Shown: positions 2,051 through 54,236, counted from the stretch's first letter. The stretch: DNA of 62,153 nt from an uncultured Candidatus Saccharibacteria bacterium (GCA_964486155.1 CAZAKQ010000002.1:1-62153), one strand, 5' to 3'. Translations and numbers: made by a program. The notes: generated by a model not told the origin, from the letters alone.

Positions 2051-5000
2051 TTAACTCATATATCTTAAATATAAAATAGGAATTAAAATCAAAGTTATTA
2101 TAGTAGCAAAAGATAGTCCAAAAATAATAGAAAAAGCTAAAGGAGCCCACATAGTAGAAGCAAAAATTAAAGGAACCATACCTATAACCGTTGTTAAAGT
2201 AGTTAACAACACAGGCCTTAAACGAAGAGCAGACGATTCTAATACTATTTCTCTCAACGAAAGATCTCTTCGTTCTTTTTTCATATTATTCATAGTATCT
2301 ATTAAAATTATTTCGTTATTTACTACAATTCCTGCTAAAGCTATTACACCAATAAAAGAGGGAAAAGAAAAAGCGTTACCTGTTAAAGTCAATCCGAACA
2401 ATACACCAATTAGAGATAATAATACTCCTGCAATAATAAAAGAAGTCTGTTTAAATGAATCAAATTGCAAAACTAAAACAACAATTACAAAAATCATTCC
2501 AGCAATTAAAGCCAACAACATCTCTGTAAATGTTTTGGCTATATCCTCATTTTCCCCTCCTGTTTTTAAAATTATACCTTCGGGGATAATAAAACTTCCA
2601 TCTTCAATTTTAGACATAAATTTTTTATTCACTTCTATTGCGTTAGCTCCGTCTTTTAATTGACTAGAAACAACCGCTATTCTTTCTCCTTCTTCATGAC
2701 GAATTGAAGAATTATTTTTCTTTATAGAAACATCAATTAACGAACCTAACAAGATTGTTCCTGTCTGGGTCTTTATTTCCATTTGTCTAATAGAATCAAT
2801 AGTCGTTCTAGAAGTTAAATTAGGATCTATGTTTTCAGAATTTAAATTTAACTTAACCAAAACATCTATATCTTCTCCTTTTGTTTTAATAGTAGTCGCA
2901 TCAATTCCATAGATTGCAGTTCTTAAAATTTGAGCAATTTTAACTGGGGATAAATTATTTTCAGATAATTTGGCTCTATCAATTTTTAATTCAAACTCTA
3001 TTACAGAATCATTCATACTATTAGAAATATTTGTACTTCCTTTAATATCTTTTAAAATATCCTCTGCATCAATTACGACTTTCTCTAAATCTTGCAAATT
3101 CTCTCCAAAGAATTTTATTAAAATAGGTGCTTCTGAAGGAGGTCCCTCACTCGGCTGAGCTACAGTAACCTTAGCTGTATTAATTTCAGTTAATTCTTTT
3201 CTTAAAATCTCTACTAATTCCCAACTTGGTTTTTTTCTATCATCCTTGAGCAACACTGTAATATTTCCTAATTTTTCTCCTGAGCTAGATCCTGTTCCGC
3301 TAAATGCATTTGAAGATCCCACTGCCGTTGCAAAAGATTCAATATAGGGTTGTGAATACAAAATCTCTTCAACAATTCGAACCACCATATCAGTCTCGGC
3401 TAAAATAGTACCTTGATTCATCTCTATTTCAACATAAATAAAATCTAAATCTTCAGGTACAAATAAAGTAGTTTTTAATAATCCAGAAATAGGTAAAATA
3501 AAAGAGATTACCAAAAAAAATCCCATAGACCATAAAAATCTTTTCTGAAATTTTCTATTATTTAAAAGATGCTCCAATTTATTTCTATACCATTTTTGTA
3601 AATAAAAAGTATATTCAGTTTGTTTTTTAAATAAAAGATTATTCCTTGTATTTCCATTTTGTTTTAAAACAGACAAGGCAATTAAAGGAACTATCCCCAA
3701 GGCAACAAAAAGAGAAGCACATAAAATAAAAATAAGAGTATAAGGAATCCCTTTAATAAACTCTCCCATAATACCTGACAAGAAAAATAATGGGAAAAAA
3801 GCAGCGATAGTTGTCATAGTCCCAGAAGTTAAAGGTATATAGAATTCTTTTATTGTTTTAATAGCAGATTTCTTACCGTCCATTCCTTTTTTTATTTTAG
3901 TATGCATAGCCTCTGTTACAACAATTGCTGAATCAACCAAAATTCCTACCGCTAAAATTAAAGCAAATAATGATATAAAATTGATAGTATTACCAGTAGA
4001 ATATAAACCTACAAAAGCAATCAGAAATGAAAAAGGAATAGCTAATCCTGCAATTAATGCCTCTCGCCAACCAATAGTTAAATATAAAATTGAAATTACT
4101 AACAATATAGTTACTAAACCAGATGTAGATAAATTTCTCAAATCCTTATTTAAATATTCAGCTAAATCAATAGAGAATAGAACTTCTGCGCCATCAAGGA
4201 TTCCTCCTTCTTGCATTTCTTTTAATTCTTTTTTTACATTTTTTACTATTTTAGAAATATCTCCTCCTCTTTTCTTAAAAATGGAAAGAGAAACCGCTTG
4301 TTGAGACGGACTTCCATTTACACTTACTCTTGAAAAAGAAGTTCTTTGGCTAATTCCATCTGAAACAAAAGCCAAATCTCTAATATAAACTACCTCTCCT
4401 CCAATATTTAATACCGGAATATTTTTTATTTCTTCAGGATCAATAATATCTCCTTTAAATTTTAAAGGATATTTAATACCGTTTATTTCTATATCTCCAA
4501 TTGGCAGTGAAGAATTTGATTGTGAAATAGCTCTTGATAAATCAGAAATTTCTAAATTAAATTTAGACAAAGCAGATTGATCAACAATAACTTGAATCTC
4601 TCTTTCTGAAATCCCACTAGTAATTATCTTAGAAACACCGTTAATTGATTTTAAAGAATCTTCTACTTCTTCTGATAATTTTATAAATTCAGTTATGGGT
4701 AAATCGCTAGTTATAGATAACATTAAAATAGGTTGGTCAGCAAAATTAATATCTGAAACTATAGGATCTTCAGCTTCATCAGGTAACTCTGATTTAATTT
4801 TATCTATTTCATCTTTAACTTTTTGAATAGATTCTTGTATGTTAGCATCAGCATTAAATTCAGCGACTACAGAAGAAAAACCTTCACCCGAAGTAGAAGT
4901 TATTTTATTTAAAGTATCTAAATTATTTATTAATTGATTTTCAATCTTATTAGTAATCAATTTTTCAGTATCAGTAGCGAAAGCTCCTGGTAAATATGTA

Positions 5001-5200: not shown

Positions 5201-6853
5201 TTATAAACTTTCAACTTTTTGCCCTTCTTTTAAACCTCTAGCATCAATCACTATTTCCATTTCAGCATTAACTCCTTCTTTTATAATTATTTTTTCTCCT
5301 AAAATTGGTCCTAAAATTATATGGTGAGAAACTAATTTGTCATCTTTATCTATAGTAAATACAACCACAGAATCTGTTCTAATTTTAATAGCTGAAATAG
5401 GAACAGAAAATTCTGATAATTCCTCATTTTCTTCTGATAAAACTCTTTCAACTAACAAAGATGTTGATTGACCATTAGTTAAAATTGTATTTTTATCATC
5501 TACTGCAATTTCTATTTTAATTTTCTTAGTTTTTGAATCCAATGCAGGAGCAATGTTTTTTACATAACCTTTCCATTTCTTATTAATTAGAACTTCAGAA
5601 CCATTTTTAATACTTTCTCTATCTTTCTCAGTAATATAAGATACAATTTCTAATTGATTATTATTAGCTACAATCAACACAGGAGCAAATGATGAAACAA
5701 AATCTCCTTTTTCTAAATTTAAAGAATTAATAGTACCACTTATAGGAGCTCGTATAATAGTTTTTTCATAAGCAGCCTTGGCTAAATCTAGCCCTGCTTT
5801 TGCTTGTTTTAATTGAGCTTCAGCACTAATTATATCTTCTGTTCTTTCGCCTATTAAAATTTGATCATAATTTAATTGGGCTATTTCTTTTGCAGAAACA
5901 ACAGAATTCAAACTATTTATAGCAGAAGAAATTGTTGAAGCGGTTAAATTTATAGATGAACGACTTACACTAATATTAGATTTCCAAGTATTAATAGTAG
6001 TTTCTGATAAATTAGAATTTGGAGATAAAACATTTACCGCCAAAGCTACTTGATCTAAAAATTTTCTAATTTGATTGATATTTTTCTTAGCTAATTCTAA
6101 AGCTTCAATTAAATTACCATCTACATCCAATGAAAACAAAAAACTCTCCCATTCCTCCAACATTTGTTCAATTAAAAATCTTTCCCATTCTATATCAATT
6201 TCTAATTGAGAGTCGTTCACAGAAAAAAGAACCTGAGGATTTGAGTCTCTAGGATCTCTGAACATAACATCTGTTTTATTTCTGACAGCATCATCAGCTT
6301 TTATATATGAATCATTTAATGTATTAATAATAGATACCTTAGTTTCATTTAATGAATTTTCACTATTATTTAAAGTTGCTTCTAAAATAGAAACTTGCTC
6401 ATCTCTAGCTCCTGTTTTGATTTTATTTAGAAAAGCAGCTGCAGATTCTACACTTGCCTCAGCTTGAATTAAAGAAGATCTTTGAGACCAATTATCTATT
6501 TCAGCAATTATTTGATTAGCCCAAACAAAATTCCCCTCTTTTTTATACAAAGCTATAATTTCTCCAGCACTCTGAGAATGAACTACAGCAGATGATTGAG
6601 ATTGAACTTTCCCTAACAAAGGTAAAAAAGTATTATCTAGAGTTAAGTCTCTAACAGTCATTGTTTTTACTTGTCTAATATTTTGAACAATTTTATCTTC
6701 TTCATTATTAATATTTTTTATAATAAATTGTTGGTAAATTACAAAAACCAGAATAAAGAAAATAACAGCTATTAAAATTTGCTGGTTTCTCTTCAGAGTT
6801 TTTATTTTTTGAATCCTATTTTGAACAGAATTTAAACTTAATATTTCTTTCAT
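5201..6853 (-). CDS. HlyD-family membrane-fusion (periplasmic adaptor) protein
   Basis: N-terminal TM, long coiled-coil region and a C-terminal beta-barrel-like region (IIRAPISGTINSLNLEKGDFV). Operon position upstream of the RND pump. Confidence 0.75.
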   Translation of the reverse strand: MKEILSLNSVQNRIQKIKTLKRNQQILIAVIFFILVFVIYQQFIIKNINNEEDKIVQNIRQVKTMTVRDLTLDNTFLPLLGKVQSQSSAVVHSQSAGEIIALYKKEGNFVWANQIIAEIDNWSQRSSLIQAEASVESAAAFLNKIKTGARDEQVSILEATLNNSENSLNETKVSIINTLNDSYIKADDAVRNKTDVMFRDPRDSNPQVLFSVNDSQLEIDIEWERFLIEQMLEEWESFLFSLDVDGNLIEALELAKKNINQIRKFLDQVALAVNVLSPNSNLSETTINTWKSNISVSRSSINLTASTISSAINSLNSVVSAKEIAQLNYDQILIGERTEDIISAEAQLKQAKAGLDLAKAAYEKTIIRAPISGTINSLNLEKGDFVSSFAPVLIVANNNQLEIVSYITEKDRESIKNGSEVLINKKWKGYVKNIAPALDSKTKKIKIEIAVDDKNTILTNGQSTSLLVERVLSEENEELSEFSVPISAIKIRTDSVVVFTIDKDDKLVSHHIILGPILGEKIIIKEGVNAEMEIVIDARGLKEGQKVESL

Positions 6854-6993: not shown

Positions 6994-7611
6994 TTAATTG
7001 TTTTCTTCTGTTTTTTTAAGTTCTACTTTTTGATACTCTTTAAACACTTTTTCTTTGTCTCTTTTTACTAGCTCCAATACCTTCTCTACTAATTTTTTAG
7101 GATCATCGTCAAATACAATTTTATCATTAGGACGATGAGCTTTTTCTAAAATAGTTTCTATAATTTCATCAGTTGCCCAATCCCCTCGTAGAATACCAAT
7201 GGGTTTATTGTCTTCAAAAGCAATAGTAAATTCGTGAATAGTTCCAACTCTACCAGCTGAAATAAACACCGCATCTACTGATTTAGTTAAAATTAAATCT
7301 CTTCCAGGATAACCAAAACCTGTATAAATAATTAAATCCATATACTCTAAAGGTAATTTATAGTGTTTTAAATGATCTTGTTCTGTATCTGCTGGAGAAA
7401 ATCCAATAGAAAAACCTCCTTCAGATTTAGCCCCTTTAGCTCCCCACAAAGGTAACCCTGTAGTTGCTCCCGTTACAATAATCCCCCCTTGTCTAGCTAT
7501 TTCTCTCCCTAATTCTTCTGTTTTTACAACAGCATCAGGAGTAAGATGAGTTGTTTCAGCAGCTCCCGAAACACATAATTTGGGTTTTAAAATAATTCCT
7601 TTTTCATCCAT
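6994..7611 (-). CDS. TIGR00725/LOG-like (SLOG Rossmann) family protein
   Basis: Motifs GGIIVTGATTG and ISAGRVGTIHEF are typical of the LOG/DprA-related Rossmann family. Confidence 0.65.
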   Translation of the reverse strand: MDEKGIILKPKLCVSGAAETTHLTPDAVVKTEELGREIARQGGIIVTGATTGLPLWGAKGAKSEGGFSIGFSPADTEQDHLKHYKLPLEYMDLIIYTGFGYPGRDLILTKSVDAVFISAGRVGTIHEFTIAFEDNKPIGILRGDWATDEIIETILEKAHRPNDKIVFDDDPKKLVEKVLELVKRDKEKVFKEYQKVELKKTEENN

Positions 7612-8647: not shown

Positions 8648-9076
8648 TTAATTCTTAGTTTCTACAACTCGTAAAGTATCTGTTTTTTTCAAAACAAAAA
8701 TATAAGCAACCCCCCAACCTATCATATCCACAATCAAATCCAAAATTGTATCGAACAAGTAATTTGGTTTTAAAGGAAAAGCAAATACTAACTCATATAA
8801 CTCCCAAATAAGTCCAACGCCCAAAACAAAAATAAGAGAAATTAAAAAAATAGAATACTTTTGATTTATTTTACTCAATTTATCTTTAATATCAGATAAC
8901 ATAAAAACATAATAACTCAACAAAGCTACCCAAAATCCTCCTAAAAAATGCATAATTATATCAAACCACCAAAATCTCCAATACAAAAAATGATGCAAAG
9001 CGATAAAATCGCAAATTAATATAAACCAAATCAAGACTAATAAAATCCATAGAAATTTTCTTTTTAAATTTAACAT
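8648..9076 (-). CDS. hypothetical multi-pass membrane protein
   Basis: 142 aa with about four hydrophobic segments and no recognisable catalytic motif. Confidence 0.45.
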   Translation of the reverse strand: MLNLKRKFLWILLVLIWFILICDFIALHHFLYWRFWWFDIIMHFLGGFWVALLSYYVFMLSDIKDKLSKINQKYSIFLISLIFVLGVGLIWELYELVFAFPLKPNYLFDTILDLIVDMIGWGVAYIFVLKKTDTLRVVETKN

Positions 9077-14410: not shown

Positions 14411-15537
14411 TATATTTTTTGATATATTCTTATTATTTTTTTAATTAAATTTTCTAAATTATGATCATCCATAATAATATCTCTTAATCTTTTACCAACT
14501 TTTATTTTTTCTTCTTCTGATAATTTAGAAAGATCATGTATCTTATCTATTAAATCTTTATTATCCTTTTTTTCAAAAAATAATTTATCAACATATTCTC
14601 TAAAAACTTCTTTAGAAGAATCATTACTTGATAATACTAACAATCCACAAGACATTGCTTCTAAAATAGCTTTATCTAAACTTCCTGTCTGGCTTGTATT
14701 AATAAACAAATCTGCTTTATGTAAGTAATTAATAATATTTTTATTAGGAACAGAGCCAACAAAGCTTATTTCTTTTTCTAAACCTTCTTTTTTAACTCTT
14801 TGTTTTAAATTTTCCAAATATTTTGTTTGATCAATTTTTCCTACTCCTCCAACAATGTCTAGTTTAACTTTTAATCCTTTTTCTTTTGAAATTTTTATCG
14901 AATCAATCAAAGTATCATAATCTTTAATTGGAGAAATTCTACCAACAGTTATAATTTTAAATACATTTTCTTTAAAATTATTATCTTTTCTATAAAATTG
15001 ATCTATATTGATTCCATGCCCTGTAATATTTAATTTTTTAGTTTTTATACGAAATGATTCTGGAGTAGCTGAAAAAATAGTGTGAGTTAATTTTTCAGCT
15101 ATTCGTAACTTTAAATCAACAGATTTATGCATATACCACAAACCAATTTTCTTTTGCCATAATCGCCACAAAATGCCCCCTAAAACAATATATTCTGGGT
15201 TCATATGTACAAAAACATTATCGTAATTATGTCTTTCAGTCCAAATATATTTGTAAAAATTTTTTATATATAAAAATTTCTTGAAAATTGAATCATTGAA
15301 AATTGATTGAGAATTGAAAATTGAAAACCTGCCTGCCGGCGAGGTAGGTTGAAAATTATCCTGTTCTTTTCCTAAGGAAAGAACTTTAACATTATTAGGC
15401 AAAGCATATTCTCCCACCTCTAAAGCTATTACTGTAATTTTTTCACAATGCTTGGCAAATTCAGCTACCCAACCATGAAAAAAACCAAGGATATCATCAT
15501 TTTTATTTATTTTTTGTGTTAATATCAATAATTTCAT
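14410..15537 (-). CDS. glycosyltransferase family 1/4 (carries an in-frame repeat insertion)
   Basis: GT-B C-terminal motifs (INTSQTGSLDKAILEAMSCGL). N terminus MKLLILTQK. Confidence 0.8.
   Translation of the reverse strand: MKLLILTQKINKNDDILGFFHGWVAEFAKHCEKITVIALEVGEYALPNNVKVLSLGKEQDNFQPTSPAGRFSIFNSQSIFNDSIFKKFLYIKNFYKYIWTERHNYDNVFVHMNPEYIVLGGILWRLWQKKIGLWYMHKSVDLKLRIAEKLTHTIFSATPESFRIKTKKLNITGHGINIDQFYRKDNNFKENVFKIITVGRISPIKDYDTLIDSIKISKEKGLKVKLDIVGGVGKIDQTKYLENLKQRVKKEGLEKEISFVGSVPNKNIINYLHKADLFINTSQTGSLDKAILEAMSCGLLVLSSNDSSKEVFREYVDKLFFEKKDNKDLIDKIHDLSKLSEEEKIKVGKRLRDIIMDDHNLENLIKKIIRIYQKI
15281..15355. repeat. palindrome-bearing repeat inserted in frame in the glycosyltransferase ORF
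   Basis: gaaaattga/gagaattga word run plus a GC hairpin acctgcctgccggcgaggtaggt (15327-15349). Same building blocks as intergenic repeats elsewhere in the window. Confidence 0.6.
15497..15537. repeat. 41-bp perfect direct repeat, copy 1 (5' end of the GT gene)
   Basis: tcatttttatttattttttgtgttaatatcaataatttcat is identical to 16128-16168. Confidence 0.95.
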
Positions 15538-16224: not shown

Positions 16225-17343
16225 TTAATTATTTATTGTTTTACTCCATCCTCTTTGAATCAAAGCTAAATTTTCATTTCTAGATTGTGGAATTTTTTCT
16301 ATAAAATCTTTATAAGCCTTAGTTTTTAATTCTTCCAACAATTCCGGATGTTGTTGAGCATTTTTAATACTTTCTGAAAAACATTTTTTATCACCTACAT
16401 CACACAATAAAGCGTTATTTCCTCTTAAAACTTCTCCTACTATACCTACCTTTGTTGTTAAGATAGGACAACGAGAAACAATAGCTTCAACTAACGCTAA
16501 TCCATATCCTTCATAATTAGAAGCTGATAAAAATAAATCTGCTGTTTTGTAGTAAGAAATTGGATCATCAGTCCAACTTTTAAAAATAATATTTTCTTCT
16601 AAGCCTTTTCTTCTGGCTAATTTCCTTAAATTTTTTCTTTGAGAACCACTTCCTACTATTATTAAACCCGTCTTGGGAAAAACTTTAACAATATCTTTCA
16701 TAGCTGAAATAATTAAGGAAATATTTTTTTCATCTTCTAAACGACTCATTGTTAAAGCTATAAATTTAAATTGAGGATATTTTTCTTTTAAAGAAAAACT
16801 TGGAACAGTCGCCTGAATCAAACTTACACTAGTAAAAATAGGAATTACAGAGATAGCTTTTCTTTGGATATTTCTAGGTAAAGATTGTTTAATTCTTTTA
16901 GAAACAACTCTTATATGATCTGCCTTAGATAAAAGAAATCTAGCTATAAAAGATCTTATTCTATTTAAGAAAGAGTGTTTTACAAAATATTTATTAAACA
17001 AATCTGTATGAATTTGTAATTCCAATTTAATTTTCAATTTCTTAGCAATTCTCCAAGCTATAAATCCTATTTCATAAGCATCTTGAGCAGATACTAAATC
17101 TACTCGGTCTAAATCAAAAGCTATCTTTTTAGCATCTCTAATATATGAAAATTTATTTTTTGAATTAGTAGGATGTAAATGAACATTAGCACTAATTTTT
17201 GTTTTATTAAAAGATTCATTTTCTTTATTTAAAACAATTACATCTATTCTATCAACTAACATTCCATAATTAAATAAGCGATTACGTACATCACTATTTT
17301 CTTCAAATAATTTACGATCTGTACTAATAATTAAAATATTCAT
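16225..17343 (-). CDS. glycosyltransferase family 1
   Basis: GT-B fold motifs (LSASNYEGYGLALVEAIVSRCPILTT). Confidence 0.8.
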   Translation of the reverse strand: MNILIISTDRKLFEENSDVRNRLFNYGMLVDRIDVIVLNKENESFNKTKISANVHLHPTNSKNKFSYIRDAKKIAFDLDRVDLVSAQDAYEIGFIAWRIAKKLKIKLELQIHTDLFNKYFVKHSFLNRIRSFIARFLLSKADHIRVVSKRIKQSLPRNIQRKAISVIPIFTSVSLIQATVPSFSLKEKYPQFKFIALTMSRLEDEKNISLIISAMKDIVKVFPKTGLIIVGSGSQRKNLRKLARRKGLEENIIFKSWTDDPISYYKTADLFLSASNYEGYGLALVEAIVSRCPILTTKVGIVGEVLRGNNALLCDVGDKKCFSESIKNAQQHPELLEELKTKAYKDFIEKIPQSRNENLALIQRGWSKTINN

Positions 17344-17463
17344 CCCGTTAGAGATAGTTTGTCAGAGACAAACTATCTCGAATTAAATTAATAACTTTTT
17401 GTTTCCGTTTTATCTATACTAATAATAAATATTTATTCTCACCAAATCTCTAACGGAATTCAT
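17342..17463 (-). promoter_or_regulatory. leader cassette copy a: mini-ORF plus arm abutting the GT start codon
   Basis: Distal ATGAATTCCGTTAGAGAT opens MNSVRDLVRINIYY* (17463..17419). Proximal ATCTCTAACGGGATG ends at the start codon at 17343. Confidence 0.6.
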
Positions 17464-18703: not shown

Positions 18704-18806
18704 ATGAATCCCGTTAGATATTGTAACTTTTTTCACAAATAACGGAATTTTAAATTTAGGTAAACTACAATATGCAAAAAGAAAGAAAAAAAATCTCTAA
18801 CGGGAT
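18704..18806 (+). promoter_or_regulatory. leader cassette copy b
   Basis: Distal ATGAATCCCGTTAGATAT opens MNPVRYCNFFHK* (18704..18742). Proximal ATCTCTAACGGGATG ends at ATG 18805. Confidence 0.6.
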
Positions 18807-19350
18807 GAAAATTATTATTACAGCGCCACTTTTTCCTCCTGAAATCACAATTGGATCCATCTATATAAAAAAATTAGCTCAAACTTTAAAAGAAGTTGAC
18901 TTCAAAATTCAAGTCTTAACATATTCTATATTTCCTGAAAAGATAAATGGGGTTAAAATAACCAAAGTAAACAAACAATTACCTTTACCAATTCGTTTAA
19001 TAGTTTTTACTTTTAAATTATGGAAACTAGCAAGAAAAAATGATGTTATTTTTTCTCAAAACGGAGCTTCTGTAGAGTTTCCAATCTTTCTAATGTCAAA
19101 ATTAATTAAAAAACCTTACATCATATATATTAGTGATAAAAAAGCTTTTAATTATACTAAAGATAAAATCCTGTTAAATTATATTCAAAGAAAAACTTTT
19201 AAAAAAGCGTTCCAAATAATCAAAGATATTCCTGATCCAAAACCAGAAGTAACTCCTTTTGATAATAAAATTAAAGATAAGATAAACTTATATAAAAATT
19301 CATGGGAAAAACATATTAAATATATAAAAAAAATCTTAAAAAATGCCTAA
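18805..19350 (+). CDS. glycosyltransferase N-terminal-domain-like protein
   Basis: MKIIITAPLFPPE start typical of GT4 N-domains, but the C-terminal domain is missing. The ORF track opens at 18772; the internal ATG at 18805 abuts the cassette arm. Confidence 0.5.
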   Translation: MKIIITAPLFPPEITIGSIYIKKLAQTLKEVDFKIQVLTYSIFPEKINGVKITKVNKQLPLPIRLIVFTFKLWKLARKNDVIFSQNGASVEFPIFLMSKLIKKPYIIYISDKKAFNYTKDKILLNYIQRKTFKKAFQIIKDIPDPKPEVTPFDNKIKDKINLYKNSWEKHIKYIKKILKNA

Positions 19351-28321: not shown

Positions 28322-28363
28322 TAAAACCCTACTAGTCCAGTTAACTGGACTAGTAGGGTTTTA
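28322..28363. repeat. 42-bp perfect palindrome, core tagtCCAGTTAACTGGacta
   Basis: Symmetry checked. Lies 26 nt 3' of the HTH gene stop, so it may double as a terminator. Confidence 0.9.
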
Positions 28364-28388
28364 TTTTTTAATTTTTGTTTATATTTAT

Positions 28389-28846: not shown

Positions 28847-28868
28847 TTAGTCCAGTTAACTGGACTAA
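28847..28868. repeat. 22-bp perfect palindrome, core tagtCCAGTTAACTGGacta (candidate operator)
   Basis: The palindrome starts 27 nt upstream of the HTH gene start codon. Its centre is 63 bp from the centre of the next copy. Confidence 0.85.
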
Positions 28869-28907
28869 TTTATGGTAATTTGTTTTTTATAAATTTTAAT
28901 TTTACTT

Positions 28908-28933
28908 GATTAGTCCAGTTAACTGGACTAATC
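28908..28933. repeat. 26-bp perfect palindrome, core tagtCCAGTTAACTGGacta
   Basis: Symmetry checked. Confidence 0.9.
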
Positions 28934-29037
28934 TTTCTTAATTCTTAAATCCTAAACTTGCCCGCCAGCAAGCAAGTCTTAAATCTTTAAATTAATAAAA
29001 AAATAGAGAAGTTAAACCTCTTCATTTAAAAAAATTT

Positions 29038-31767: not shown

Positions 31768-31782
31768 AGTTTATCCCGTTAG

Positions 31783-31855
31783 AGCCGAAGATGAGAATTG
31801 AACTCATGACCTACGCGTTACGAGTGCGTTGCTCTACCAACTGAGCTACTTCGGC
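31783..31855 (-). tRNA. tRNA-Thr (anticodon CGU)
   Basis: Cloverleaf folded by hand: acceptor gccgaag/cttcggc, anticodon loop ctCGTaa, T arm atgag-ttcaatt-ctcat. Confidence 0.85.
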
Positions 31856-32418: not shown

Positions 32419-32507
32419 AATTAACCAATAATATAGCATATTTAGTTAAATAATTAAACACTCCTCCAAACAAAAACAACCCAATTGGGTTGTTTTTGTT
32501 TTACTTG

Positions 32508-32578
32508 TTGCGGGAGCCTGACTTGAACAGACACCTGGAGGTTATGAGCCTCCCGTGCAACCTTTACACCATCCCGCG
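32508..32578 (-). tRNA. tRNA-fMet (anticodon CAU), initiator-like
   Basis: C1-A72 mismatch (cgcggga / tcccgca), anticodon stem ggagg/cctcc, loop ctCATaa, T loop ttcaagt. Confidence 0.7.
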
Positions 32579-32790
32579 ATATACTATTTAGTTTTAAAAC
32601 AAATTTATTCTTGTAACTCATAACCAAAGGTTATGAGTCTATGGATCCTATCGCGTGCAACCTTTACACCATCCCGCGATATACTATTTAGTTTTAAAAC
32701 AAATTTATTCTTGTAACTCATAACCAAAGGTTATGAGTCTATGGATCCTATCGCGTGCAACCTTTACACCATCCCGCGATATATTTAGTT
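32554..32790. repeat. 100-bp tandem repeat, about 2.3 copies, each containing the 5' 25 nt of tRNA-fMet
   Basis: 32554-32653 is identical to 32654-32753. A third partial copy starts at 32754 and has a 3-nt deletion. Confidence 0.9.
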
Positions 32791-41016: not shown

Positions 41017-41852
41017 TATAATATAAAATTCAAACTCCACACATTCCAATTAAAGAAAAAAACTAAAATCATTCCTATTATTAAGAAAGGCGCAAAAGGT
41101 AATTCACTTTTAATTGTAAAATCTTTAGATAAAAAAGACAATTGCTTACTGTGACTAATTTTTGATAATAATATTAAAAACAAACCGACTAAAGCTCCTA
41201 ACCAAACTCCTAAAATAATAGCTGACGAACCTTTAATTAATCCTAAAAACCAACCTATTCCCAAAGCTAATTTAGCATCTCCTAAACCTAACCATTTTCC
41301 TTTAGAAACAATCCACAAAAATATAAAAGGGAAAGCCAATATCGGTCCAGCCCAAAAAATAGACAAAAAACCAAAACCATCAAAACTTAAAATAAAAAAT
41401 CTAAACAAAGCTATCCCAGAAAATAAGAAAACCCAAAGATCAGGAATAATTTTATTATATAAATCATATACAAATATAATAATTAATAATGAAAAAATCA
41501 CCCATAACGACATTAAATCAAAAAATTGTAATATTGAAGATTGAGACATTGAGAATTGTTTGAAAGTTGTGAATTGTGAATTGAAAATTAGAAGAAATAG
41601 TGTCCCCGACACTATTTCGACCAAGGGGTATTGCCAAGAAATATTCTGTTTACATTTTTTACATTTGCCTTTTAAAAACAAAAAACTCAAAACAGGAATT
41701 AATTCATACCATGTTAGTTTTTTATGACAATTTGGGCATTCAGATCTTCCATTTAAAGATTTTTTCTCTTGTCGTAAAATAACCACATTCAAAAAACTAC
41801 CAATAATAGTTCCAAAAACAAACACGCTTATTCCCAAAAAATAATTTTCCAT
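41016..41852 (-). CDS. pilD: prepilin peptidase / N-methyltransferase (A24 family)
   Basis: CPNC..CKKC zinc-binding N-domain, YPLVEIVSG motif and multi-TM peptidase domain with GLGDAKL. Confidence 0.85.
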   Translation of the reverse strand: MENYFLGISVFVFGTIIGSFLNVVILRQEKKSLNGRSECPNCHKKLTWYELIPVLSFLFLKGKCKKCKQNISWQYPLVEIVSGTLFLLIFNSQFTTFKQFSMSQSSILQFFDLMSLWVIFSLLIIIFVYDLYNKIIPDLWVFLFSGIALFRFFILSFDGFGFLSIFWAGPILAFPFIFLWIVSKGKWLGLGDAKLALGIGWFLGLIKGSSAIILGVWLGALVGLFLILLSKISHSKQLSFLSKDFTIKSELPFAPFLIIGMILVFFFNWNVWSLNFIL

Positions 41853-45837: not shown

Positions 45838-45982
45838 GATTGTTTAAATTAATTATATTATATTTTTTAAAATTCGTCACATAAGTTTGTGTATAGTAAA
45901 TTATATTCACAATTTAATTTTCAATTCACAATTCTCAATCCGCCAGCTGGCGAATCAATCAATGAATTAATTATCAATTTTC

Positions 45983-46080
45983 AAACACGAATTTTGGCTC
46001 CGCCAAAATTCGTCAACATTGGAAATTTAAACATTGAAAATTCCTTGAAAATTATGAATTATGAATTGAAAATTTTTTTA
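45983..46080. repeat. intergenic repeat in the pilB-pilT spacer (58-nt core identical to 49442-49499)
   Basis: attttggctccgccaaaattcgtcaacattggaaatttaaacattgaaaattccttga at 45991-46048. Confidence 0.9.
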
Positions 46081-49334: not shown

Positions 49335-49433
49335 TAAAAAATAATCTGTATCTTAAAAAGTGTGGATAGAAACGAATACGAATTTTCAATTTCTAATTTT
49401 CAATTTTCAATCAATAAAAAATGTTCAATTCTC

Positions 49434-49530
49434 AAACATGGATTTTGGCTCCGCCAAAATTCGTCAACATTGGAAATTTAAACATTGAAAATTCCTTGAG
49501 AATTGTAAATTGTAAATTGAGAATTTTTTA
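49434..49530. repeat. intergenic repeat in the pilM-pilN spacer (second copy)
   Basis: 49442-49499 is identical to 45991-46048, and the flanks are similar. Confidence 0.9.
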
Positions 49531-50703
49531 ATGCACATCTTCCAGCCCTCTTAGTGCCAATCCTACTGCTACAGCAAATTCAGGACCTATTTCTTTCAAA
49601 ACTTCGTCTAAAAAAGCAGGAGTTTTAACTTTAGAAAAAGGATTTGCTATTTGAGTATTAATCTCCAAATTTTCAGAAGTAAAAGCTGGCAAACCTTTTA
49701 TTACCGAACCTCCTCCTGTAAAAATTAACTCTTTGATATTTTTACCTTTTTTAGTTTGATATTTTTTTAAAACTTTATTAGCTTCTATAAAAATATAATT
49801 CAAATTAGTAGTCATAATTTCAGCTAACTCTTTATTTTCTTCAGTAATATTAGCTAAATCAATTTGTCTTTTCCTTTCTTCTGCCTCTTTTATAGATATA
49901 CCTAAAGCTCTAGATATTGCCAAAGTTATATCTTGAGATCCTTTATTTATAATATAAGAATCTTTTACTATTCCATATTCAACTATATACATTTTACTTA
50001 CACTAGAACCAATATCTATCATAGCCACTGTGTTAATGTTATGGTCTATCACTGATCTAATAGTACTGAAAATTTCTATTTCTAAAAAATTCAAACTTAA
50101 TTGAGATTGTTTTATTATATTTCTATATTTTTCTATAGCATTTTTGTGAATCGCTACTACAAATATTTTTAATTGTTTTACTTTTGCACCTTCCTTTTTT
50201 TTATTATTTACAGCTATAGCAGATCGCTTATCTTCAGCTTCAATCTCTTCATCATCAAATTGATCTTCTGGAATAATCCTCCAATCTAACACTACCTCAG
50301 AGATAGGAACTGGAATATATCTTCTAGCCTCTATAGGAACTATTTTTTTCAGTTGTTCTTCTGACATTACAGGAACCTCCATATTGAAAACTAAAGCTGA
50401 ACGAATAGGGATACAAGTACCACAATGAGAAACATTTACTCTAGATTCTTCAATTAAACTCATTAAAGAAGAACTAATTTGTTTGTTACTTAAATTAGTC
50501 GATCTTCCTATTTCTGTTCCTCCTGCTGGACCTAAAGCCAACTCTCCATAAGTCTCTAAAACCGCCACCTCTTTTTCTTTTTTTAGTTGTACTATTTTTA
50601 TAGCAGAACTACCAATATCTACTCCTAAAAAACTTTGAGATTTATTTTTTAAAAACTTAAAGCTTTTTATTTTGTTTAAAATATTTTCCAATTTCATTAA
50701 CAA
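49528..50703 (-). CDS. pilM: actin-like pilus assembly ATPase PilM
   Basis: FLGVDIGSSAIKIVQL and IDIGSSVSKM ASKHA-fold phosphate motifs. Confidence 0.85.
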   Translation of the reverse strand: MLMKLENILNKIKSFKFLKNKSQSFLGVDIGSSAIKIVQLKKEKEVAVLETYGELALGPAGGTEIGRSTNLSNKQISSSLMSLIEESRVNVSHCGTCIPIRSALVFNMEVPVMSEEQLKKIVPIEARRYIPVPISEVVLDWRIIPEDQFDDEEIEAEDKRSAIAVNNKKKEGAKVKQLKIFVVAIHKNAIEKYRNIIKQSQLSLNFLEIEIFSTIRSVIDHNINTVAMIDIGSSVSKMYIVEYGIVKDSYIINKGSQDITLAISRALGISIKEAEERKRQIDLANITEENKELAEIMTTNLNYIFIEANKVLKKYQTKKGKNIKELIFTGGGSVIKGLPAFTSENLEINTQIANPFSKVKTPAFLDEVLKEIGPEFAVAVGLALRGLEDVH

Positions 50704-50721
50704 TATTATATCATATACTTA

Positions 50722-50806
50722 ATGAATCCCGTTAGAGATTACGGGGATAATTGTTATCAATTTAATTTAAGATAGTTTACCAAAAATAACCTATCTCTAA
50801 CGGGAT
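50722..50806 (+). promoter_or_regulatory. leader cassette copy c (upstream of comF)
   Basis: Distal ATGAATCCCGTTAGAGAT opens MNPVRDYGDNCYQFNLR* (50722..50775). Proximal ATCTCTAACGGGATG ends at ATG 50805. The arms are 14/14 complementary. Confidence 0.65.
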
Positions 50807-51479
50807 GAAACTAAACATTTTTTTGAAAAAAAGTTGTGGATTATTTTTAAATCTTTTTATTCCTTTAAATAATACTCAAAAGATGTTGAATAATATTTCT
50901 GTTGATGAATTTATGTCTTTAACTTCTCAAACTACTAATTTAAATCTTTCTATTATAAACACCTTAACAATTTTTAATTATAAAAATAAATTAGTTAAAC
51001 AAGCTATTTGGGCTTTGAAATTTAAAAATAATACAAAAATTGCTGAACTTTTTGGACAAATTATCTATGACTATTTAATTGAGGAATTAGCTGACTTAAA
51101 ACTTTCTCATAATTTTAATAAACCAGTTCTTATTCCTATCCCAATTTCTTTGAAAAAAAGATCGGAACGAGGATATAATCAAACTGAGTTAATTGCTTCT
51201 AAAATAAATAAATTAGATAAAAACAATTCTTTTGATTATCGTAAAAATATTTTAAAGAAGATAAAAAATACACTTCCTCAATCTAGAACTAAAACAAAAA
51301 AAGAACGTGAAGAAAATCTTAAGGGATGTTTCAAAGTGGTAATGCCTAAATTAGTTTCTGAACGAAATATTATTTTATTAGATGATGTTATTACTACAGG
51401 AGCCACTTTAAACGAAGCCAAAAAAGAACTTAAAAAATATAACCCTAAACAAATTATTTGTGTTGCTTTAGCGCATTAG
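50805..51479 (+). CDS. comF: ComF-family phosphoribosyltransferase-like competence protein
   Basis: PRTase motif ILLDDVITTGATLNEA and a ComFC-like core. Confidence 0.8.
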   Translation: MKLNIFLKKSCGLFLNLFIPLNNTQKMLNNISVDEFMSLTSQTTNLNLSIINTLTIFNYKNKLVKQAIWALKFKNNTKIAELFGQIIYDYLIEELADLKLSHNFNKPVLIPIPISLKKRSERGYNQTELIASKINKLDKNNSFDYRKNILKKIKNTLPQSRTKTKKEREENLKGCFKVVMPKLVSERNIILLDDVITTGATLNEAKKELKKYNPKQIICVALAH

Positions 51480-53124: not shown

Positions 53125-54132
53125 TTATCGTGTATATCTAAGTGTATTCCATCTATCTAAGTAAATCATTTCTAAATTATGTTCATCTAATTTTACTATT
53201 TCATATACAAAAGGATCTAATCCTGGGGTAACTGCAAATAAATATTTACCATTTTCATCTTCAGGAGTTTCTCTTGTTATTGGATATTCATTATAAAGAA
53301 GAAAAGGTCCTTCTATCATAGAGACTCCATCGTAAAAATCTACTTTATATTTATCACTGAAATCTAAAATAGATTTTTCATCGTCAACTGAAATCCACCG
53401 TCCTTTTATTTTTTCATAATTATTAGAAATTTCAAGATTTTGATCATTCAACTCAATAGTATCTACTACTTCATCAAAAGAATTAAACCAACTCTGAGCT
53501 TCTTCCGAACCTTTCCCTTCCTTTAAACTATTATAGAAAGCATCTATTTTATCAAAATTCCAAATTAATTGATCTCCACAATTTTCTTCATTCTTTTCAA
53601 AATATTCTGACATAGTTGGAATAATTAAATCTTTATTTCCTTTTAAGGTTATAATAATTCTTCTATCATTTTTAAAAAATAAAGCTTTCCTTTCTAAAGT
53701 TACATCACAAATCTCAAAACGACTTAAAACCATATATTCTTGAGCATTAATTCCTTTTAAATCTCTGACTTTTTTTGAAATTTCCAATTCCCAATCATGT
53801 TCAGTTCCATATTCTCCCTTTTTCAAAGACTCTACTGTACTTAAAACATCTTCTTTGTCAAAACTTGGATAATCTAAATCATCTATTTTCGTATTTTCAA
53901 CCAAAAGCTGAGTTTCTCTTCCTGCGAAAGAGACACTATGTGGATATTTTAAAAATAAATCAGTTCCTTCTATTTCATAGAAATTCCATAAATCTGTTTC
54001 ATTTTCTATAGCCTTAGCTTGTCCACTTTGGTTAAACTCCTGTTCCTCTTTATTTTCTATAGAGCCTACTAAAAAACTTAGTCCAAATACTATTAATAGT
54101 ATTACTCCTAATAATATTAAAATGTTTTTCAT
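53125..54132 (-). CDS. hypothetical secreted protein
   Basis: Signal-peptide-like N terminus MKNILILLGVILLIVFGLSF. No motif recognised. Confidence 0.5.
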   Translation of the reverse strand: MKNILILLGVILLIVFGLSFLVGSIENKEEQEFNQSGQAKAIENETDLWNFYEIEGTDLFLKYPHSVSFAGRETQLLVENTKIDDLDYPSFDKEDVLSTVESLKKGEYGTEHDWELEISKKVRDLKGINAQEYMVLSRFEICDVTLERKALFFKNDRRIIITLKGNKDLIIPTMSEYFEKNEENCGDQLIWNFDKIDAFYNSLKEGKGSEEAQSWFNSFDEVVDTIELNDQNLEISNNYEKIKGRWISVDDEKSILDFSDKYKVDFYDGVSMIEGPFLLYNEYPITRETPEDENGKYLFAVTPGLDPFVYEIVKLDEHNLEMIYLDRWNTLRYTR

Positions 54133-54236
54133 CCCGTTAGAAATAATTCACTATTAGCAAACAATCTCAGTTAATTTATAATTTTAATTCCCGTTTTTTA
54201 TCCAAATTACAAAATCAAATCTCTAACGGGATCCAT
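54131..54236 (-). promoter_or_regulatory. leader cassette copy d
   Basis: Distal ATGGATCCCGTTAGAGAT opens MDPVRDLIL* (54236..54207). Proximal ATTTCTAACGGGATG ends at the start codon at 54132. Confidence 0.6.

Follow-up and report, generated by a model that had tools for sequence, protein, structure and literature searches.

What is the short cassette that stands between the divergent genes pilM and comF in this genome, and does it serve comF as a leader? The locus lies in a stretch of 62,153 nucleotides from an uncultured Candidatus Saccharibacteria bacterium (GCA_964486155.1 CAZAKQ010000002.1:1-62153), which was analysed as a whole and is referred to below as the window. A preliminary description had read the cassette as a leader whose translation or folded structure might control comF. 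Every structural detail in that description was borne out when we checked the sequence. ATGAATCCCGTTAGAGAT opens a 17-codon upstream ORF (uORF), MNPVRDYGDNCYQFNLR followed by a stop codon (50773-50775), which occupies 50722-50775. The gap between this stop and the comF ATG at 50805 is 29 nt long (50776-50804), and all 14 nt of the arm ATCCCGTTAGAGAT (50726-50739) can pair with those of the arm ATCTCTAACGGGAT (50793-50806). The distance of 18 nt between the leader and the start of pilM holds for a TTG at 50703, but an ATG at 50697 is the likelier start codon. What had been missed is that the 5 nt ATGAA at 50722-50726 recur at 50805-50809. Given this repetition of ATGAA, a single target site has been duplicated, and its two copies supply the "leader ATG" and the comF ATG. 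The features of the locus are as follows.

49528..50697, minus strand: pilM, divergent, with an extended -10 box TGATATAAT at 50705-50713 (minus strand) that adjoins the insertion.
50709..50714, plus strand: probable comF -10 box TATCAT, 7 nt before the original ATG and conserved in relatives, with presumed promoter activity.
50722..50726, plus strand: left target copy ATGAA, that is, the original comF start codon plus 2 nt.
50722..50775, plus strand: uORF of 17 codons, MNPVRDYGDNCYQFNLR and a stop, a probable relic of a frame leading from the host ATG into a nuclease.
50726..50739, plus strand: left terminal inverted repeat, or distal arm, ATCCCGTTAGAGAT, the first A of which is part of the duplicated target.
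50727..50805, plus strand: element proper, 79 nt, TCCCG...CGGGA, ORF-less and MITE-like, in the comF start codon.
50741..50748, plus strand: internal partial arm repeat ACGGGGAT, which could form an alternative small hairpin with the distal arm.
50793..50806, plus strand: right terminal inverted repeat, or proximal arm, ATCTCTAACGGGAT, the last A of which, with the duplicated TG, gives the comF ATG.
50805..50809, plus strand: right target copy ATGAA, the rebuilt comF start codon.
50805..51479, plus strand: comF, encoding a ComF-family phosphoribosyltransferase, intact.

The boundaries of the element proper were set from the 4-5-nt duplication statistics of the family copies described below. 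As a remnant at comF, the cassette measures 81 bases. The N-terminus of ComF is conserved with its orthologues, which cover 100% of the query, and the ComF homologues point to Candidatus Pacebacteria (Patescibacteria/CPR).

Comparison with related genomes revealed the state of this site before the cassette arrived. The cassette is absent at four orthologous pilM-comF loci (L002, L006, L007 and L009), the ComF proteins of which are 73-76% identical to that of the window. In these empty loci, the start-codon spacer is 24-32 nt long and reads ...TATCATATACTTA directly before ATGAAA, so that the sites end in ...ACTTA followed by ATGAAA.... The empty relatives read ...TTATATCATATACTTA followed by ATGAAAATT..., and the window reads ...TTATATCATATACTTA followed by ATGAA, the insert (TCCCG...CGGGA) and TGAAACTA. 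Since the cassette is missing at four orthologous loci, it was inserted into the comF start codon of the window, where the duplicated ATGAA now flanks it; and since the sequence shared with the empty sites is interrupted after ATGAA, the "leader ATG" is the original comF start codon. Read at the nucleotide level, the present comF ATG is made up of the last A of the insert and the duplicated TG.

The cassette had also been assigned to a family within the window, and three further copies with the same architecture as the comF copy bear this out. The exact 14-mer occurs 5 times in the 62 kb, and the arms form four inverted pairs, at 17342/17446, 18708/18793, 50726/50793 and 54131/54219. When up to 3 mismatches were allowed, 13 arm matches were obtained where 4.4 were expected, and the count stayed below 13 in all 100 shuffles. 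The three further copies are listed below.

17342-17355 and 17446-17459, minus strand: arms of copy A, in the start codon of a GT4 glycosyltransferase gene (16225-17343).
18708-18721 and 18793-18806, plus strand: arms of copy C, in the start codon of the ORF 18805-19350.
54131-54144 and 54219-54232, minus strand: arms of copy E, in the start codon of the ORF 53125-54132.

All four copies can be written as ATGxy-TCCCGTTAGARAT...ATYTCTAACGGG-ATGxy-gene. The proximal arm abuts the ATG of a real gene in 4 of 4 copies, and the distal arm follows directly after ATG(A/G)A in 4 of 4, with the upstream ATG kept each time. The host genes are two different genes of a glycosyltransferase cluster, comF and a gene for a secreted hypothetical protein. 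In addition, two of these sites are empty in related contigs: site A in three of them (L251, L252 and L254), which read ...TTGATATACTAAAGAAA directly before ATGAAC..., and site C in L251. Conversely, the start codon of the adjacent glycosyltransferase gene is occupied by a copy in L251 and is empty in the window (GGTATAATAGAGAG directly followed by ATGAAAATA); on visual comparison, this copy is closely like copy A of the window. Such reciprocal presence and absence at adjacent start codons of related genomes is the pattern of a mobile element.

A scan with a degenerate two-arm pattern, covering one genome per species, matched at least 120 genome stretches. The matches listed include Saccharibacteria, Paceibacteria, Nomura-, Kaiser-, Yanofsky-, Wolfe-, Lloyd-, Doudna- and Kerfeldbacteria, Kazan and others, together with a few Planctomycetota-labelled contigs, and about 1 Mb of fetched loci contained 148 repeat pairs. 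The short copies measure 79-134 nt. In 116 of the 128 listed copies, ...GGG-ATG leads into a long ORF (median about 230 codons), and essentially no long ORF starts from the listed copies in the opposite orientation (n = 128). An upstream ATG in the canonical register is also present in 88 of the 128, and in 83 of the 128 a flanking direct repeat ATGxy of exactly 5 nt is perfect, with the positions outside it at background level. The few copies that do not lie at an ATG are flanked by 4-nt duplications (TTTA, CTAA and TAAA), indicating that the element proper is TCCCGTTAGARAT...ATYTCTAACGGGA, that the duplication is 4 bp long and that the terminal A of the element completes the ATG. The arm sequence is invariant across distant lineages, and the free arm position co-varies, forming a Watson-Crick pair in 110 of 116 cases. 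Among 2.9 million viral contigs there were 0 full-length and 2 short copies, and carriage by phages was rejected.

The duplicated xy is AA in 64% of the perfect repeats, compared with 24% of the second codons in control genes, and its second base is almost always a purine. The AA excess and the purine bias suggest a target preference of about ATGRA; residence in start codons could owe much to this preference together with purifying selection rather than to true targeting. The 88 host genes represent 150 Pfam families and have no function in common, and for this reason a competence regulon or shared operator was rejected as an account of the family. They include PheT and other aminoacyl-tRNA synthetases, Mur ligases and a ribosome hibernation factor. 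Since essential genes are found among the hosts, the insertion must be compatible with their expression.

A search for DDE-type transposases between distant arms in about 1 Mb of fetched loci found none, and full-length copies encoding a GIY-YIG nuclease surfaced instead. The full-length element is about 280 bp long and consists of 13-14-bp terminal inverted repeats, TCCCGTTAGARAT / ATYTCTAACGGGA, around one 86-aa GIY-YIG ORF. In L129 (1335-1614), the same repeats enclose the ORF MFYTYLLKSKKNGKLYTGSTNDLRKRLKQHN...RFLSLTG, which matches the Pfam GIY-YIG domain (PF01541) with E = 1e-16. A scan of metagenomes for arms 230-260 nt apart returned at least 120 such elements; those listed (n = 120) span 257-286 bp, and an intact ORF of 84-88 aa was recovered by a simple filter in 92 of these 120. 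The nuclease is a single-domain protein of 86-88 aa with no other domain. Its family comprises more than 3000 clusters at 90% identity, falls into length classes of 86 and 95 aa and is annotated only generically, as "GIY-YIG nuclease family protein". Among solved structures, UPF0213 BH0048 (1ZG2, E = 5e-4) is the best relative, and group I intron endonucleases are weakly similar in sequence (TIGR01453, E = 6e-7, below the cut-off).

The reading frames of the full-length element are interlocked with those of the host gene at both ends. At the right end, the repeat itself encodes the C-terminus of the nuclease, ...LSLTG and a stop (CTA TCT CTA ACG GGA TGA), and this TGA overlaps the rebuilt host ATG in the form ATGA. 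At the left end, the host ATG is in many copies in frame through the repeat into the nuclease (MNPVRD-xxx-MxYxY..., GIY-YIG), a fusion that accounts for the 95-aa length class; in other full-length copies, the frame stops right after MNPVRD, giving a 6-codon mini-ORF, and the ATG of the nuclease follows a few bases on. Among the intact full-length copies with T...A ends (n = 44 listed), the ATG is rebuilt in 43, a long host ORF lies downstream in 42, the ATGA stop/start overlap is present in 38 and the in-frame fusion to the host ATG in 16, and every one of those listed points in the same direction as its host gene. No such association with start codons is seen in a sister lineage that has C...G ends (48 intact copies listed).

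The short copies can be connected with the full-length ones through their interior. The 8 nt that adjoin the right repeat on its inner side are complementary to a segment exactly 174-175 nt upstream, in the LRKR codons, in 72 of 91 full-length copies, and this pairing is accompanied by compensatory changes (GGAAACGC/GCGTTTCC, GGAAGCGC/GCGCTTCC and GGAACCGC/GCGGTTCC). These two halves lie together in many short copies as a tight 7-8-bp hairpin abutting the repeat, for example ACGGAAACG-TTAA-CGTTTCC-T-ATCTCT, which is exactly the arrangement that an internal deletion would give. This hairpin lies beside the gene-proximal arm in about 40 short copies and beside the distal arm in about 9 (roughly 4:1), and thus both insertion orientations survive, with a bias. 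The comF copy has ends of about 20 nt identical to those of the full-length GIY-YIG elements, and beyond these ends no similarity of its interior to the nuclease ORF was detectable. An AACGGGA-like internal motif is also found in the aligned family copies.

Beside what is directly observed, namely the insertion, its duplication, the membership in a family and the full-length parent with its reading-frame design, we consider it highly probable that the comF cassette is a MITE-like insertion derived from a GIY-YIG parent element. Inverted repeats, a target duplication, a small ORF-less form in many copies, polymorphism and an autonomous partner, the features by which MITEs are recognised, are all found for the comF copy, the candidate partner being the full-length GIY-YIG elements from other genomes, which have the same ends. 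The T...A lineage lies after ATGxy, with TGxy (or ATGxy) duplicated, and its last A and the duplicated TG rebuild the host ATG. In full-length copies, the host promoter and the original ATG would drive the nuclease, through either the MNPVRD fusion or the mini-ORF and the nuclease's own ATG, and the ATGA overlap would permit termination-reinitiation at the host gene. Deletion of the nuclease ORF would have left the comF copy with the two repeats, the start of the MNPVRD frame and AT-rich filler; since the frame of the full-length copies runs as MNPVRD... from the host ATG, the comF "leader peptide" is a stump of that frame. No GIY-YIG gene was found within the 62-kb window, and the element may have been mobilised in trans, the GIY-YIG nuclease being supplied by a gene at another place in the genome. 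We know of no GIY-YIG nuclease that acts as a transposase and of no integration chemistry for these enzymes. The 4-5-nt duplication also lacks a mechanistic explanation, and these points count against a derivation from such a parent, as does the dissimilar interior of the comF copy.

Under this derivation, comF, which was probably leaderless before, would now carry an 83-nt leader starting at or near 50722. Any transcript that starts at the conserved promoter carries both the uORF and the stem, since these separate the promoter from comF. The AUG at the 5' terminus would open the uORF, and the 3' strand of the 14-bp stem would take in the A and U of the comF AUG; ribosomes on the uORF, which spans the distal arm, would open the stem. 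Translation of comF could follow once uORF ribosomes or breathing of the stem free the proximal arm, and it might start by reinitiation over the 29-nt gap or by SD-independent internal initiation, although our confidence in any specific route is low. With the uORF stop at this distance from the comF ATG, the ATGA coupling of the full-length copies is lost. The most likely net effect on comF would be expression that is damped but retained. An internal GATAAT (50746-50751) may be an alternative promoter and source of comF transcripts, and the pilM promoter, given its extended -10 box TGATATAAT, should tolerate an insertion at about its -30.

The family hosts and this genome have few SD motifs, and the ATG often follows a (TG)TATAAT-like box at a distance of 6-7 nt, a leaderless geometry; upstream of the original ATGs, an excess of TAnnnT boxes is found at -13/-12. 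The leaderless signature was found in 28.6% of the host genes and 17.5% of the control genes on the same contigs (p = 0.02). The enrichment is only modest, and targeting of open promoter complexes is therefore speculation, which we do not claim.

A full-text literature search returned no description of such an element, and the only close work was that on the Ssn nucleases (Chenal et al. 2025, Nat Commun, PMC11893778). These are single-domain GIY-YIG proteins of about 94 aa (cd10448) that cut ssDNA beside cognate hairpin repeats (NTS/SRM); their authors remark that ssnA genes are often flanked by the repeats in an "IS-like" arrangement, NTS-ssnA-NTS, and the Neisseria Ssn modulates natural transformation (PMC11893778). 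Start codons, target duplications, a start/stop ATGA overlap and CPR are not mentioned in that paper. The likeness to the present elements lies in a small single-domain GIY-YIG protein of about 90 aa between inverted, hairpin-forming repeats, and in repeats that are also scattered around genes as many ORF-less copies. However, the 13-14-nt terminal repeats enclose the whole unit here, whereas the Ssn repeats are self-contained hairpins of 20-50 nt. Copies in start codons with a fixed register, a 4-5-nt duplication and an ATGA stop/start overlap also set the present elements apart, as do their hosts, which are Patescibacteria and some Planctomycetota-labelled contigs. The SRM consensus HGTCWY...RNCYNB had 0 matches in the 120 listed full-length elements, each taken with 100 nt of flank on either side, and 0 in the window.

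This likeness gives rise to the first alternative, according to which the repeats are DNA-level hairpins for an Ssn/NTS-like ssDNA nuclease of the GIY-YIG type that the host keeps; they would mark genes and modulate the recombination of incoming ssDNA in transformation, and the effects on translation would be incidental. The succession of repeat, small single-domain GIY-YIG gene and repeat is indeed the layout of NTS-ssnA-NTS (PMC11893778). Moreover, the cassette stretch is predicted to fold as ssDNA into the same long-range stem as its RNA (-15.7 kcal/mol, z = -3.5), the internal stem is conserved through the compensatory changes described above, and the window encodes a type IV pilus as well as the ComF competence protein. 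CPR bacteria in general probably depend on DNA uptake. We nevertheless regard this alternative as unlikely, because the elements and the window are devoid of SRM matches, the window holds no nuclease gene, the best solved relative of the nuclease is a UPF0213 protein, and a selfish insertion is indicated by the presence/absence polymorphism and the target duplications as well as by the register within start codons and the ATGA overlap.

A second alternative, to which we give somewhat less credit still, is that the cell offsets the insertion by processing the RNA: an enzyme such as RNase III, which acts on Correia elements, or another endonuclease at the base of the stem would excise or cut the long hairpin, leaving a near-leaderless comF mRNA for which the uORF and the stem are irrelevant. 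The predicted RNA fold of the cassette stretch is the long-range stem (-25.7 kcal/mol, z = -3.5), whose 14 perfect base pairs stand exactly between the two ATGAA copies; the hosts are often leaderless, some of them being essential and in need of expression, and arms that are invariant across distant lineages suggest recognition by a protein. However, recognition by a nuclease at the DNA level explains the conservation of the arms equally well, and a stem of 14 bp is short for RNase III. Clean removal would in addition tolerate insertions in coding regions, yet the copies are almost confined to start codons. There was also no match to a ribozyme or known RNA family: the Rfam 15 covariance models, applied to the whole window at the gathering score, matched only tRNAs and tmRNA, and around the cassette only chance-level matches appeared at E up to 10.

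The reading of the preliminary description, a dedicated cis-regulatory leader of comF or of competence in which the peptide and an alternative hairpin couple comF translation to leader translation, is largely refuted as the origin of the comF cassette and in our judgement very improbable. Part of it stands, since the uORF and the 14-bp stem that hides part of the comF AUG are real and a dependence of comF translation on them is plausible; a regulatory origin, on the other hand, is unsupported. The distal arm can indeed pair with either the internal ACGGGGAT (stem 50727-50746) or the proximal arm, and all four window copies keep the upstream ATG. However, the target duplication accounts for that ATG, and a leader serving a competence gene is at odds with the empty orthologous comF loci and with the same cassette in the start codons of unrelated housekeeping genes. 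Nor are the features of the uORF conserved. Across the family, its length varies from 6 to 49 codons, its frame is split 40/25/23 among the three frames (88 copies), its stop lies between -4 and 100 nt from the main ATG, and the leader peptides share only the first 6 codons, which the repeat encodes. The freedom of length, frame and stop indicates that the peptide is not a selected feature. In place of a conserved leader, there are inverted repeats, a duplication and descent from a nuclease-encoding element. Conserved translational coupling in the short copies was likewise considered and rejected, as the uORF overlaps the ATG or ends no more than 4 nt from it in only 23 of 88 cases.

An invertible promoter switch or a paired transcription-factor operator between the divergent pilM and comF would suit inverted repeats around a short AT-rich segment between divergent genes and the occurrence of both interior orientations relative to the host gene (roughly 4:1), but it deserves next to no credence in view of the target duplication and the empty orthologous sites, the same spacing of the arms in two independent assemblies, the range of arm spacing from about 50 to 100 nt in short copies to about 250 nt in full-length copies, and the presence of copies between co-directional genes (copy A).

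Some further candidates were set aside. The cores of an integron attC site resemble the GTTAGAG and CTCTAAC of the arms, but their strand order is the reverse of R''...R'. Two others were rejected by eye: a promoter in the proximal arm, in which TATCTC lies 7 nt before the ATG and is without the invariant final T, and an SD motif in the same arm, the GGG of which is too close to the ATG. To our knowledge, the arms have no convincing complementarity to tRNA, 16S rRNA or the anti-SD.

The derivation of the cassette from a mobile GIY-YIG element invites comparison with other known repeats. Like the Correia/CREE elements of Neisseria, ERIC and RUP, the comF cassette and its relatives are short, ORF-less, bounded by inverted repeats, flanked by duplications, present in many copies and polymorphic. 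Bacterial MITEs are co-transcribed with neighbouring genes as hairpins that can alter expression; classical MITEs are intergenic and typically have TA or other duplications. Here, in contrast, about 80-90% of the insertions lie in start codons, in one register that rebuilds the ATG, and the parent is a 280-bp unit with only an 86-aa GIY-YIG nuclease rather than an IS with a DDE transposase. REPIN/RAYT systems and IS200/IS605 palindromes are similar in that their hairpin repeats form doublets of about 100 nt, their stems are conserved through compensatory changes, and a small nuclease or transposase acts on single-stranded hairpins. However, their enzymes have the HUH/Y1 fold and not that of GIY-YIG; REPINs are found downstream of genes and leave the target unduplicated, and RAYTs are single-copy genes that are not enclosed by repeats in a 280-bp unit.

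The GIY-YIG homing endonucleases (I-TevI, the T4 Seg and Mob enzymes, and the mobA-gene 60 bypass cassette) also represent selfish nuclease genes placed in or beside a host gene with host expression kept. The present nuclease differs from them in comprising 86 aa in all, with no DNA-binding domain and no intron or bypass signal, and in occupying hundreds of different genes instead of one cognate allele, with inverted repeats and target duplications. With regard to uORF and leader-peptide control, such as that of ermC or ATGA translational coupling, the comF locus shares a uORF and a stem occluding the main AUG, and the full-length copies share the classic stop/start overlap; the peptide, however, is neither conserved nor linked to a ligand or antibiotic, and the arrangement was made by insertion and did not evolve in place.

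A start-codon-inserting GIY-YIG element family that is widespread in CPR bacteria does not seem to have been described so far, and embedding in the start codon with regeneration of the ATG and ATGA coupling appears to be new. The comF cassette can be described as a putative MITE-like derivative of an Ssn-like, nuclease-only element. We give about an even chance to a broader, joint reading of these observations, in which the T...A-ended GIY-YIG units are undescribed autonomous mobile elements which would rank with the smallest at about 280 bp. Their niche would be the start codons of mostly leaderless genes in Patescibacteria, and they would borrow the host promoter and first AUG for their 86-aa nuclease and hand translation back through ATGA; the comF cassette and its three siblings would be decayed copies persisting as 5' uORF-hairpin leaders, and the nuclease might, like Ssn, also act on ssDNA repeat hairpins.

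The account of the comF cassette as a decayed insertion replaces a story of a competence leader by an evolutionary one that can be tested, and it exposes a large protein family that has so far carried only a generic annotation and whose way of living in genomes looks unusual. If true, it bears on how selfish elements survive in very compact genomes, on how leaderless and SD-less translation copes with 5' inserts, and on the spread of cognate repeats by small GIY-YIG (Ssn-like) nucleases, which was left open in the work on Ssn (PMC11893778). It also touches on annotation, as gene callers mis-start the host genes: ComF is called 6 codons short, and the nucleases are called at either 86 or 95 aa.

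In the public gene call for the window ComF (database protein P0001), translation begins at a TTG at position 50823, 6 codons late, which gives a protein of 218 aa, versus 224 aa when it is read from the ATG at 50805. Comparison with orthologues supports the ATG at 50805 as the likely true start of comF, and the gene caller was probably misled by the insert, the 79-nt ORF-less element copy that lies inside the comF start codon. At many gene starts in the window, a canonical TATAAT or TATACT box is located 6-7 nt 5' of the ATG (for example, at 9076, 18644, 27533, 33638, 35529, 41852 and 50697), and SD motifs are very scarce at the gene starts of the window. The source genome appears to be rich in leaderless genes.

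Outside the window, the same arms, which are the 13-14-nt terminal inverted repeats of this element family, were also observed in contigs labelled as Planctomycetota (L063, L050, L068, L071 and L025), where some of the arm pairs are very short hairpin versions of 47-64 nt and some of the element copies lie away from start codons. The copies in L063 are as follows:

4520-4566, element copy
6198-6289, element copy
7078-7128, element copy
7286-7349, element copy

The presence of the arms in these contigs could be the result of horizontal spread or of mis-binning. Among the matches listed, many full-length elements of the C...G-ended sister lineage (e.g., L152, L170, L189 and L200) are situated between TTTA...TGAA without a direct duplication; these flanks could mean that the inverted repeat is 4 nt longer in such elements, or the insertion may have split A|TG, resulting in a GTG start. 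With respect to the host genes in alignment A1, Ribosomal_S30AE, a ribosome hibernation factor, was the host in 4 of the 88 copies and was the sole family found more than twice among the matches listed. In the relatives L252 (4157-4879), L253 and L254, a 240-aa ORF with a faint match to the Y1 transposase family (PF01797) directly follows the glycosyltransferase orthologue on its 3' side, and this ORF is missing from the window at the corresponding position.

Other repeats were also noted in the window. Within the type IV pilus operon, an intergenic repeat of approximately 110 nt, 90% identical and built of ATTGAAAATTG-like motifs, occupies spacers 3' of pilB and of pilM. Palindromes centred on GTTAAC, namely TAGTCCAGTTAACTGGACTA and CCCCAGTTAACTGGGG, recur in the window; they look like terminator hairpins or, alternatively, like members of another small family of repeats.

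45969-46078, ATTGAAAATTG-motif repeat
49420-49529, ATTGAAAATTG-motif repeat
41530-41589, also ATTGAAAATTG-motif repeat
15277-15336, also ATTGAAAATTG-motif repeat
28333-28372, GTTAAC-centred palindrome
28848-28887, GTTAAC-centred palindrome
28911-28950, GTTAAC-centred palindrome
about 35660 and 36424, GTTAAC-centred palindromes

A tandem repeat and an arm-like match were further noted at two tRNA genes:

32507-32578, minus strand, tRNA-Met
31782-31855, minus strand, tRNA-Thr

Because a 100-nt unit present in 2.3 perfect tandem copies (32554-32783) begins within the 5' part of tRNA-Met, the start of this tRNA has been duplicated together with its upstream region. An arm-like 12-nt match, CTCTAACGGGAT, at 31773-31786 immediately adjoins the 3' end of tRNA-Thr and could be a solo arm or a chance match.
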